DNA of 41,498 nucleotides from Escherichia coli. GTDB taxonomy: Bacteria > Pseudomonadota > Gammaproteobacteria > Enterobacterales > Enterobacteriaceae. The position numbers and the translations under genes were made by a program. The first letter of the stretch is position 1, and each line of letters opens with the position of its first letter. The notes beneath the pieces were generated by a model that was not told the DNA's origin, searched no databases, and was given only the letters and a program-made list of their open reading frames with translations. Location of the stretch: assembly GCF_003334305.1 (NCBI RefSeq), contig NZ_QOWS01000030.1; one strand, given 5' to 3'. Shown here in pieces: positions 9,174 to 10,020 of the stretch.

Positions 9174-9800
9174 CATGACTCCTTGCTCATCGCATGAAGA
9201 CTCCGAGAGTGAACCCCGTTAGAAAGGGTCACACGCATGCCCCAATAGAAATTTGTTTGAACACTTTCATCATACCATGTGAATGCACACAAAAACGGCG
9301 TAAAGAAAGGTTGCAAACATGTTAATAAAAACTCAAATTGATCCCACGTATATATTACGCCGCAAAATCCTTACAATAAACAGGTTTTTGTTGAAGCAAA
9401 TTTGCATTTTTCGACGGTGATCAATTTATAGCTAAATTACCGCCTTTCAGCCAATTTGATCGAGAACAATTTATCTCTTTTTGATGCCCATTTCCAAGAC
9501 TTATACATTGATAAATATCAATTCCTACAAATTATGTTAATCATGTTTCAATAAGGTAACTTTAGTGACATTTATGTTTAAAATGTGTGAGTTATAAGGC
9601 TGAAATTAGTTTCGGTTGGCAATTAAAGATAAAAAGAGACGAAGCAAAAACAGCACGGTTGACCTTAATTCTTTTTTTGGTCACTGGCTAATACGACGCA
9701 GAGTTTCAGGATTACTAATAAAGGCATAAATCCACCCCCGCCGATATTAACATTTAATTAACTTATAATTATATTATAATTAACTCACCCAGGGTTATTA
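9174..9800. promoter_or_regulatory. Long AT-rich cydA upstream control region (multi-promoter region reported to be ArcA/FNR/H-NS regulated)
   Basis: Non-coding AT-rich sequence upstream of cydA, with several TTGAT/ATCAA half-sites and GTTAATTA-like ArcA-type boxes visible. Confidence 0.6.
9508..9521. promoter_or_regulatory. Perfect TTGAT-N4-ATCAA palindrome (FNR/CRP-family binding-site consensus) upstream of cydA
   Basis: Sequence ttgataaatatcaa at 9508..9521, a 5+4+5 perfect inverted repeat matching the FNR core consensus; cydAB is reported to be FNR-repressed. Confidence 0.55.
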
Positions 9801-9807
9801 TTTTGTT

Positions 9808-9834
9808 AAAAATAAAGCCACATATACGTGGCTT
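9808..9834 (-). terminator. Rho-independent terminator candidate downstream of mngB
   Basis: Stem AAGCCAC(9815..9821) / GTGGCTT(9828..9834), 6-nt loop; on the minus strand the hairpin is followed by TTATTTTTAAC (plus-strand A-run 9808..9814). Confidence 0.5.
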
Positions 9835-9857
9835 GAGAGTGAAGATAAACGCAAAAT

Positions 9858-9970
9858 TACCTGATGCGCTACGCTTGCCAGTGTCTACATCATCTCTGCA
9901 ATATATTGAATTTGCCTGCTTTTGTAGACCGAATAAAGCGTTCATGCCGTATCCGGCATGAACAAAGCGC
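9858..9970. repeat. REP/BIME-like palindromic units in the mngB 3' region
   Basis: CCTGATGCGCTACGCTT at 9860..9876 resembles the REP consensus core; perfect palindrome CATGCCGTATCCGGCATG at 9943..9960; other GC-rich imperfect palindromes nearby. Confidence 0.45.
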
Positions 9971-10020
9971 CCTTTGTCAACAATCTGGCCGCGCATATGT
10001 GGCTTCGGTTTGATTGCTAT

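Follow-up and report, generated by a model that had tools for sequence, protein, structure and literature searches.

The mngB-cydA spacer

The 847-bp stretch at 9174-10020 is very probably the known E. coli region through which oxygen controls cydAB (cytochrome bd-I), joined to the untranslated tail of mngAB. In the window, by which we mean the whole 41,498-nucleotide stretch of DNA that was analysed, this intergenic spacer belongs to the minus strand and fills the gap between mngB (10021-12654) and cydA (7605-9173), both encoded on that strand. Directly after it the gene order is cydA-cydB-cydX-ybgE, as annotated in K-12 and in the window. The cydA start at 9173 corresponds to the second ATG of an ATGATG pair; the K-12 annotation uses this ATG, and of the two it alone is conserved in other genera.

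GC content was 0.367 in the spacer, falling to 0.31 in its core at 9461-9800, compared to 0.512 in the window. No other inter-gene gap of the window is as long, the next being that between sdhC and gltA (693 bp); an apparent gap of 726 bp was left out of this ranking because abrB occupies the interval. An unusually long, AT-rich cydA/mngB region, as claimed by the sequence-only reading, is a fair description (37% GC vs 51%), and one already in the literature, where the "847 bp spacer" was singled out as a long multi-promoter example with five promoters and H-NS binding (Shimada 2014). The spacer was 100% identical in E. coli M8, in which mngB and cydA are annotated as its flanks. Its K-12 counterpart, of 846 bp, was 99.7% identical, with two substitutions and one indel, the differences being located at 9757, 9743 and 9739. 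Apart from these three positions, the K-12 cydAB promoter/operator described in the literature (Park 2013, Myers 2013 and Shimada 2014, among others) is the same locus, with the same two FNR sites, three ArcA sites and transcription start context.

FNR sites and transcription starts

Two FNR sites and two promoters were placed in the cydA-proximal half of the spacer:

9508-9521: FNR-1, the exact consensus TTGATAAATATCAA, 0 mismatches
9456-9469: FNR-2, TTGATCGAGAACAA, 1 mismatch, overlapping the inferred P1 start
~9469-9475, minus strand: putative P1 -10 element TAAAT(T)
9345-9380, minus strand: promoter with an experimentally mapped start at 9345 (-10 TAATAT, 9352-9357; -35 TTTATT, 9375-9380)

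The centres of the two FNR sites are separated by 52 bp, with FNR-2 downstream. Matches with at most one mismatch numbered 6 in the whole window against 1.47 expected, a count that was reached in none of 100 shuffles. In several Enterobacteriaceae genera, the distance from FNR-1 to the ATG downstream was about 341-348 nt. FNR-2 would lie at -1.5 relative to P1, a position that Govantes 2000 is reported to give. The published FNR ChIP peak of cydAB (770,404, its site being placed at -53.5) corresponds to a window position of about 9450. The FNR dyad that had been reported from the letters is a perfect one, accompanied by a second site, and a published ChIP peak coincides with it.

With the FNR site at its published -53.5, P1 would start at about 9461 and give a leader of 288 nt. 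The start at 9345 was taken from the supplement of Kim 2012, where it has a 172-nt leader and a 50-nt upstream context identical to 9345-9395 of the window; its promoter block, AAAAACCTGTTTATTGTAAGG…CGGCGTAATATA, was almost invariant in 12 Enterobacteriaceae. The literature total for cydAB is five promoters, and RNA polymerase holoenzyme occupies several places in the spacer in vitro (Shimada 2014). Matches to a sigma-70-like promoter were at chance level in the spacer (3 found, 3.4 expected from shuffles), so that the scan was not used to place P3-P5. The "mngB/cydA" sigma-54 site of the literature lies within mngB, about 1.5 kb upstream and outside the spacer. A weak PdhR SELEX site (9/14 match) is located near 9799, and deletion of pdhR has been found to be without effect on cydAB.

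ArcA sites and H-NS

Three ArcA sites described in K-12 were recovered in the spacer:

9743-9790, minus strand: 'cydA1' (Park 2013), stronger than the other two (19.8 bits), with its ChIP-seq site at 9743-9773
9543-9594, plus strand: 'cydA2' (Park 2013), core ATGTTTAAAATGTGTGAG at 9574-9591
9298-9328, plus strand: 'cydA3' (Park 2013), GCGTAAAGAAAGGTTGCAAACATGTTAATAA, core ATTAACAT.TTTG.AAC kept across genera, ArcA box at 9309-9324

The supplement of Park 2013 reports three ChIP-seq peaks whose site sequences are identical to those of 9743-9773, 9574-9591 and 9298-9328 except for one SNP. Site cydA1 consists of an array of 11-bp-phased direct repeats, extending over 9746-9785 by scoring and up to 9790 by eye. 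It includes, at 9748-9762 on the minus strand, the ArcA 15-mer consensus GTTAATTAAATGTTA, to which the window has no other exact match; the K-12 box reads GTTAACTAAATGTTA, with C at 9757 instead of the T that yields the exact consensus here. In Kluyvera, Superficieibacter, Pluralibacter and E. cloacae, a similar box precedes the ATG by 590-591 nt. The AT-rich boxes that had been likened to ArcA half-sites, for example at 9757-9790, fall within cydA1, one of the three ChIP-seq sites (Park 2013), which also includes the exact consensus.

Activation of cydAB by ArcA has been summarised as H-NS anti-repression (Park 2013), and H-NS has been flagged on the mngB-cydA spacer (Shimada 2014). The sdhC-gltA region of the same window (25190-25882) is likewise a long respiratory spacer (693 bp) in which ChIP-seq has distinguished several ArcA direct-repeat sites. 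However, its genes are divergent, ArcA represses them, its GC content is 0.43 and it carries neither a REP nor a terminator module, whereas the cydAB region is tandem, has a GC content of 0.37 and is activated by ArcA through anti-silencing.

Proposed organisation of the region

The spacer is very probably made up of two units, and none of the observations contradicted this reading. The one next to cydA, from 9174 to about 9800, would provide cydAB-cydX-ybgE with its cis-regulatory sites and its long leader, with transcription from several promoters that include P1 and the conserved 9345 start. Under anaerobiosis, FNR would repress from its two dyads, whose centres lie 53.5 and 1.5 bp upstream of P1; under microaerobic conditions, phosphorylated ArcA on its three direct-repeat sites would raise expression, mainly by displacing the H-NS that would otherwise silence this AT-rich DNA. 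The net outcome would be a synthesis of cytochrome bd-I that peaks at low oxygen. The other unit, from about 9805 to 10020, would correspond to the mngAB untranslated tail, a REP/BIME followed by an intrinsic terminator that would shield the cyd control region from read-through. Cotter 1997, Govantes 2000 and Lynch & Lin 1996 are said to be among the studies of the K-12 control region, and the first two reportedly provide the genetics behind the repression and activation logic and the H-NS antagonism.

Sequence and published mapping show where the sites lie and what they are, as well as the start at 9345, the in vivo occupancy by ArcA and FNR and the conservation across genera. The control elements and the 847-bp spacer were already known, and the sequence-only reading re-describes them; since FNR and ArcA sites were placed correctly from raw sequence alone, it can be regarded as a positive control.

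Conservation across genera and spacer versions in E. coli

In a footprint of 12 Enterobacteriaceae, the conserved blocks were the FNR sites, the P1 -10 element, the 9345 promoter and the ArcA cores, and their spacing to the ATG was kept. In most of the Enterobacterales loci examined, cydA was preceded by a spacer of below-average GC content, whatever the upstream gene, with a length of about 520-1170 bp as roughly estimated from ORFs of at least 100 aa.

Within E. coli, the spacer exists in three or more versions that have diverged deeply from one another, represented by window/K-12, O157/UTME-7 and GPEC1185. The proximal 350 bp of these versions were 75-82% identical and no homology was found beyond them; in one version the strongest ArcA site had no colinear counterpart. 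The spacer is also the breakpoint of a large structural polymorphism of the species, a methylaspartate island of about 15 kb or the loss of mngRAB being located exactly here. Both the breakpoint and the absence of homology beyond the proximal 350 bp would be expected if the AT-rich tract were mainly a scar of horizontal transfer, left at a junction of island gain and loss, rather than selected regulatory DNA. We consider this improbable: the proximal ~375 bp and the ArcA and FNR blocks are conserved at fixed spacing in genera with different upstream neighbours, and the blocks are occupied in vivo by ArcA and FNR. A scar accounts for the variability of the distal part but not for the function of the tract. 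Given the version in which the strongest ArcA site has no colinear counterpart, E. coli lineages may differ in their oxygen set-point for cydAB.

The mngB tail

The mngB-proximal part of the spacer contained two modules:

9805-9834, minus strand: intrinsic-terminator-like hairpin and U-run (stem 9815-9834, AAGCCACGTATATGTGGCTT, then TATTTTT)
9845-9975, minus strand: BIME-type dispersed repeat (REP hairpin 9939-9964, degenerate REP at ~9850-9885, linker)

The terminator-like hairpin folded with -10.2 kcal/mol (z = -4.3), and a hairpin with a T-run was present at the equivalent alignment position in E. cloacae, Enterobacter BIGb0383 and RIT691. Judging from its sequence and its position after mngB, it is probably where the mngAB transcript ends and would mark the upstream limit of the cydAB control region, which is in line with the mngB terminator proposed earlier. 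Published term-seq, performed under LB conditions, recorded no 3' end for mngB, the putative terminator included; low expression of mngAB in LB may be the reason.

The REP hairpin folded with -19.9 kcal/mol (z = -4.6). The segment 9845-9975 occurred at no fewer than 40 places per genome in all 5426 complete E. coli genomes; the REP-like palindromes noticed in the sequence are part of this dispersed REP/BIME. Together, 9805-9975 resembles other E. coli BIME/REP and terminator modules at operon 3' ends in its imperfect palindromes, dispersed copies and position after the stop codon. It differs from them in nothing of note and is an ordinary copy, although it is sometimes translated by gene callers as a 'hypothetical protein'. 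The BIME linker carries a promoter-like match, TCTACA-17-TATATT (9928-9900), which has been listed as a constitutive promoter (Shimada 2014). Its location in a dispersed repeat, upstream of the terminator, makes it unlikely that it feeds cydAB.

Candidate genes within the spacer

The sequence-only reading had also regarded the spacer as a plausible place for unannotated small RNAs or leader peptides. While the stack of elements that it described coincided, element by element, with published K-12 data, this further suggestion was not supported. The following coding candidates were considered, the ORF survey covering all ORFs of at least 20 aa and, in 43 sequences, every upstream ORF with an ATG start within the final 120 nt of the leader:

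9769-9996, minus strand: 75-aa ORF, PGAP 'hypothetical protein' WP_001324497.1, judged spurious
9195-9187, minus strand: leader-peptide candidate, mini-ORF ATG-CGA-TGA
9190-9173, minus strand: leader-peptide candidate, mini-ORF ATG-AGC-AAG-GAG-TCA-TGA, overlapping the preceding one
from 9238, minus strand: leader-peptide candidate of 21 codons (the -65 ORF)
9316-9173, minus strand: leader-peptide candidate with a TTG start, 47 codons

A regulatory leader peptide encoded in the cydA leader, possibly translationally coupled to cydA, would fit the two mini-ORFs, which lie behind GGAG and whose stops overlap the next start (ATGA), the last one on the cydA start codon itself; their sequence was invariant in Escherichia, Citrobacter, Kluyvera and some Enterobacter. 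Hafnia, Edwardsiella, Yersinia, Serratia and Photorhabdus, among others, read CCTGCGAGGAGCAAGGAGTCAAGATG, with no ATG at -22 or -17. As the ATGs are lost while the stretch stays conserved, it is the nucleotide sequence that is conserved and not the ORFs. The -65 ORF comprised 5 to 21 codons or ran on, depending on the species, and the 47-aa product had no family match. None of the upstream ORFs was conserved among the 43 sequences: they were lost outside the Escherichia/Citrobacter/Enterobacter group and varied in length and frame. The ribosome-profiling sORF supplement of Stringer 2021 has no entry for the spacer interval. A leader peptide is thus very unlikely.

Hardly credible, in our view, is an independent sRNA gene, whether as an RNA of about 85 nt running from TCTACA-17-TATATT to the 9815-9834 terminator or as a product of the mngB 3'UTR. 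The promoter-like match is indeed followed, some 70-120 nt downstream on its own strand, by a good terminator hairpin, the polymerase holoenzyme binds in vitro at several places in the spacer, and the neighbouring sucD 3'UTR yields the sRNA SdhX. However, promoter-like matches were no commoner than chance, and the body of the candidate is the BIME repeat with its 40 or more copies per genome. Neither other genera nor E. coli genomes with another spacer type (~41% of complete genomes) had a counterpart of the segment, and the candidate 3' end is absent from the term-seq lists, in which just two weak 3' ends were published near cydA, at -21 and +25. Rfam returned no family in the spacer, either at the gathering threshold on the whole window or at E <= 1 on 8500-10800; the sole sub-threshold match was to 18 nt of ES036, in the BIME linker (21.9 bits vs a gathering score of 37.6).

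Were the 75-aa ORF a real gene, the spacer would have to be considered as two shorter ones, and indeed its annotation is present in many RefSeq E. coli genomes and its reading frame is intact in K-12. This can be given next to no credence: the ORF is absent from the curated K-12 annotation, its product matched no Pfam or NCBIfam family, REP/BIME repeat in translation makes up about half of it, it spans the terminator hairpin and enters the ArcA array, and its DNA had no homologue beyond E. coli spacers of the window/K-12 type.

The proximal cydA leader

Three features were located immediately upstream of cydA:

9174-9213, minus strand: cydA translation-initiation region, …UCGGAGUCUUCaUGCGAuGAGCAAGGAGUCAuG, 40 nearly invariant nt (Shine-Dalgarno AAGGAG, 9179-9184)
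9209-9232, minus strand: leader hairpin GUGACCC(U)…(G)GGG-U-UCAC (stem 9226-9232 with 9209-9216), with compensatory changes
9194, minus strand: published weak RNA 3' end (K-12 771437, -21 of cydA), scored as neither Rho-dependent nor intrinsic

A stem-loop was predicted in all 27 Enterobacterales leader segments folded, despite their unrelated sequences. Among 14 sequences, double (compensatory) changes affected 6 of the 9 pairs of the 9209-9232 hairpin, and its covariation score of 0.399 was reached by none of 500 shuffles (0.250 ± 0.042) and exceeded that of all slid controls; on an alignment made from sequence only, however, no more than 76% of cells paired. The mean MFE z of the hairpin was about -1, which was lower than that of one control segment (p = 1e-4) but not of the other (p = 0.14), and the whole E. 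coli leader (113 nt) folded no better than shuffles (z = +1.2). RNAalifold predicted, for 9174-9213, an 8-bp helix that pairs UCUUC.UGC with GCA.AGGAG; every pair was invariant, so covariation is silent either way.

The 3' end at 9194 appears to match the G-10/Y-1/G+1 pause consensus, and a Salmonella cydA template has been reported to show pausing that is resolved by Gre factors. The hairpin, with a mapped 3' end 15 nt beyond it, is reminiscent of his/trp-type and G-10/Y-1/G+1 pause signals. Unlike his/trp-type pauses, the cydA leader has neither a leader peptide nor an attenuator terminator, and the 15 nt from hairpin to 3' end are longer than the 11-12 nt of classical hairpin pauses. It is a tentative proposal, and one that we hold to be rather doubtful, that 9174-9245 forms an unrecognised cis-regulatory RNA module across Enterobacterales, made up of the hairpin, maintained through compensatory changes, and the nearly invariant 40 nt after it, in which an anti-SD-like UCUUC (9196-9200) can pair with the Shine-Dalgarno sequence and a consensus pause would lie at -21. 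Such a module would allow cytochrome bd-I to be tuned after initiation, via pausing, transcription-translation coupling or docking of an RNA in trans or a protein. RyhB has cydA on its target list in one preprint; in a crude full-length duplexfold of RyhB against the leader (-60 to +30), the energy was -38.2 kcal/mol, compared to a shuffled mean of -39.4, and 60% of the shuffles did as well, so that this uninformative method lends the pairing no support.

Gut colonisation requires cytochrome bd-I, as does resistance to nitric oxide and peroxide. If the spacer versions or the leader element alter cytochrome bd-I levels between lineages, they would have a bearing on niche adaptation. IS insertions in the mngB/cydA spacer recur during evolution of K-12 in the mouse gut, where they are adaptive.

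Extent and composition of the mngB-cydA spacer

The tract upstream of cydA is already known, as the published control region of cydAB. A sequence-only reading had described it as an unusually long, AT-rich region with stacked regulatory elements and as a plausible place for unannotated small RNAs or leader peptides; the description was confirmed, all the elements that it named being present, and the hidden genes found no support (no Rfam match, no conserved ORF). The interval 9174-10020 is exactly the intergenic spacer between the cydA start at 9173 and the mngB end at 10021. 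It has 847 bp and a GC content of 0.367, versus 0.512 for the window, and exceeds in length all other gene-free gaps there, the second longest being the 693-bp sdhC-gltA gap. GC content between 9461 and 9800 is 0.31. The K-12 spacer has 846 bp and three positions that differ from the window spacer, and E. coli strain M8 is 100% identical to the window over 9100-10100. Features named in the text are the following:

7605-9173, minus strand: cydA
9352-9357, minus strand: -10 element (TAATAT), from the sequence, of the promoter of the Kim (2012) start
9375-9380, minus strand: -35 element (TTTATT) of the same promoter, from the sequence
9769-9996, minus strand: 75-aa ORF annotated in many genomes (PGAP 'hypothetical protein', WP_001324497.1)

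The cydA start was placed at 9173 because of the K-12 annotation and because only the second ATG of ATGATG (9171-9176) is kept in other genera, which read AAGATG or ATAATG; this comparison supports the K-12 start over a longer ORF. The gene order in the window is lysT, cpoB, pal, tolBARQ, ybgC, ybgE, cydX, cydB, cydA, spacer, mngB, mngA, mngR, sucDCBA, sdhBADC, gltA, onward. Rfam matched a tRNA at 2-77 (minus strand; tRNA-Lys (UUU) according to ARAGORN) and the CpoB/ybgF RNA thermometer at 1004-1142 (minus strand, 142 bits).

FNR, ArcA and promoter sites

Published coordinates were transferred to the window as 9173 plus the distance to the cydA ATG. The cydA control sites map base for base onto the window, and all the elements listed have already been published. 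The proposed FNR dyad is there as an exact consensus, TTGATAAATATCAA, at 9508-9521 (FNR-1), and a second match with one mismatch lies at 9456-9469 (FNR-2). The whole window holds six FNR matches with at most one mismatch, versus 1.47 expected, a number that none of 100 shuffles reached. Another exact consensus, TTGATTTCGATCAA, lies inside sucC at 17023-17036. An FNR peak for cydAB, with a site at -53.5 relative to the start (Myers, 2013), falls at about 9450. Since the published site is at -53.5 and the two dyads are 52 bp apart, we infer a promoter, P1, starting at about 9461 with a 288-nt leader. A transcription start with a 172-nt leader has also been mapped (Kim, 2012); the 50 nt upstream of it are identical to window 9345-9395, and the block holding the -10 and -35 of this 9345 promoter is almost invariant in 12 Enterobacteriaceae.

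As to the AT-rich boxes likened to ArcA sites, the window has a single exact copy of the 15-mer consensus GTTAATTAAATGTTA, on the cydA strand at 9748-9762, within an 11-bp-phased repeat array that spans 9746-9785 by tool score and reaches 9790 by eye. Position 9757 is T in the window versus C in K-12, so that the strongest ArcA box is exact to the consensus here and has one mismatch in K-12. ArcA ChIP-seq gave three peaks upstream of cydA, with the predicted sites ATATAATTATAAGTTAACTAAATGTTAATAT, atgtttaaaatgtgtgag and GCGTAAAGAAAGGTTGCAAACATGTTAATAA (Park, 2013, supplement); these sites correspond to 9743-9773, 9574-9591 and 9298-9328, respectively. ArcA activates cydAB by relieving H-NS repression, and this activation appears microaerobically, FNR repression being then lifted (Park, 2013). 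An ArcA-like direct-repeat cluster in the sdhC-gltA spacer (25227-25546) likewise corresponds to published ArcA sites.

Small RNA and peptide candidates

An Rfam search of the tract gave no matches. The sole promoter-plus-terminator pair that could be taken for an sRNA frames a BIME repeat that is found neither in the other spacer types of E. coli nor in other genera. Term-seq tables (Adams, 2021) contain no mngB 3' end and two weak cydA 3' ends on the minus strand, at -21 (window 9194; Rho score 0.71, intrinsic-terminator score 1.1) and +25 (window 9149). In both, G occupies -10, the 3'-terminal base is a pyrimidine and the base after it is G, which is the elemental pause consensus, and judging from these bases both ends may be RNA-polymerase pauses; the published finding that Gre factors resolve pausing on a Salmonella cydA template agrees with this reading.

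Upstream ORFs of the cydA leader are not conserved across Enterobacterales. A chain of overlapping mini-ORFs (GGAG-N5-ATG-CGA-TGA / ATG-AGC-AAG-GAG-TCA-TGA / ATG(cydA); 9173-9195, minus strand) encodes M-R-stop and then M-S-K-E-S-stop, terminating on the cydA start codon. Its invariance is confined to the Escherichia-Citrobacter-Enterobacter group, and the same stretch lacks those ATGs in Hafnia, Edwardsiella, Yersinia, Serratia and Photorhabdus. Neither length nor frame is constant among the longer upstream ORFs. The annotated 75-aa ORF has no family match, is not in the curated K-12 record and equals translated REP/BIME repeat plus terminator; its annotation is very likely an artefact. Hidden genes in the spacer are thus not supported.

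A conserved cydA leader

The 40 nt before the cydA start codon (9174-9213, minus strand) are nearly invariant across Enterobacterales, 31 of them keeping 87-94% identity even in Yersinia, Serratia, Providencia and Arsenophonus. Directly upstream, a hairpin (9209-9232, minus strand) was predicted in 27 of 27 leader segments folded, in unrelated sequences. Compensatory double changes were found in six of its nine pairs (14 alignable sequences), and its covariation score exceeded those of 500 of 500 shuffles and all slid controls, in a sequence-based alignment of which only 76% of cells pair; its MFE z-scores average only about -1. An SD-proximal helix predicted by RNAalifold is invariant throughout and hence gives no covariation signal. 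No Rfam family covers this leader element. In published evolution of K-12 in the mouse gut, mngB/cydA was a parallel adaptive target: IS5 had inserted 46 nt upstream of cydA (about 9219, within the hairpin loop) and IS1 185 nt upstream (about 9358, at the 9345 promoter's -10 element).

Structural versions of the spacer in E. coli

The region upstream of cydA exists in E. coli in three or more structural versions that diverge deeply (window 9245-10020, on to about 12200; comparison loci L003, L084 and L085); a limited literature search found no description of this polymorphism. The window/K-12 type occurs in 3172 of 5426 complete genomes, and the remainder match 9100-9546 only, at about 84% identity. 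The second type (O157:H7, UTME-7) has an 805-bp spacer, then a methylaspartate/mesaconate island of about 15 kb and a divergent mngB allele, which in UTME-7 is 77% identical at its 3' end, rising to about 99% over 2 kb. In UTME-7, cydA and everything downstream are 100% identical to the window, identity breaks sharply (100% to about 78%) at about 9245, is 75-82% up to about 9546, and homology ends there. The third type (GPEC1185) lacks mngRAB, and 1329 bp separate its cydA from a TPR gene. In the alternative versions the two FNR dyads, two of the ArcA cores and the 9345 promoter are retained. The strongest ArcA site has no colinear counterpart in them; only a match with three mismatches occurs, similarly distant but on the opposite strand.

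Conservation across genera and extent of the control region

Towards mngB, the proposed terminator was recovered as a hairpin with U-run at 9834-9805 (-10.2 kcal/mol, z = -4.3), and the REP-like palindromes as a dispersed repeat (9845-9975) containing a -19.9 kcal/mol palindrome; each of the 5426 complete E. coli genomes carries 40 or more copies of this repeat. Among 80 cydA loci from other species, spacer homology extends from the ATG to about 9520-9590 (72-80% identity) in Citrobacter, Enterobacter, Kluyvera, Pseudescherichia, Pluralibacter and Superficieibacter, with none found by BLAST beyond in those six genera. Several genera keep FNR-1 in place, about 341-348 nt upstream of the cydA start codon. 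Kluyvera, Superficieibacter, Pluralibacter and E. cloacae have an ArcA-like box 590-591 nt upstream of it (589 in the window), and a further such box lies at about 409-422 nt. Three genera have a terminator of the upstream gene directly ahead of the distal ArcA box, aligned with the window hairpin. Because motif spacing is kept and upstream-gene terminators precede the distal ArcA box in other genera, the working cydA control region is about 630 bp (9174 to about 9800) and the remaining 215 bp or so are the mngAB tail.

Most Enterobacterales loci examined have a spacer of about 520-1170 bp before cydA (a rough range, from ORFs of at least 100 aa). The neighbour of the long spacer is a same-orientation mngB in Kluyvera, E. 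cloacae, RIT691 and Superficieibacter, and a divergent methylaspartate-mutase cluster in Citrobacter and Pseudescherichia. An extra perfect FNR dyad (TTGATAACCATCAA / TTGATAACTATCAA), absent from E. coli, lies about 436-439 nt upstream of cydA in Kluyvera and Pluralibacter (loci L006 and L011), with a one-mismatch copy in RIT691 (L007).
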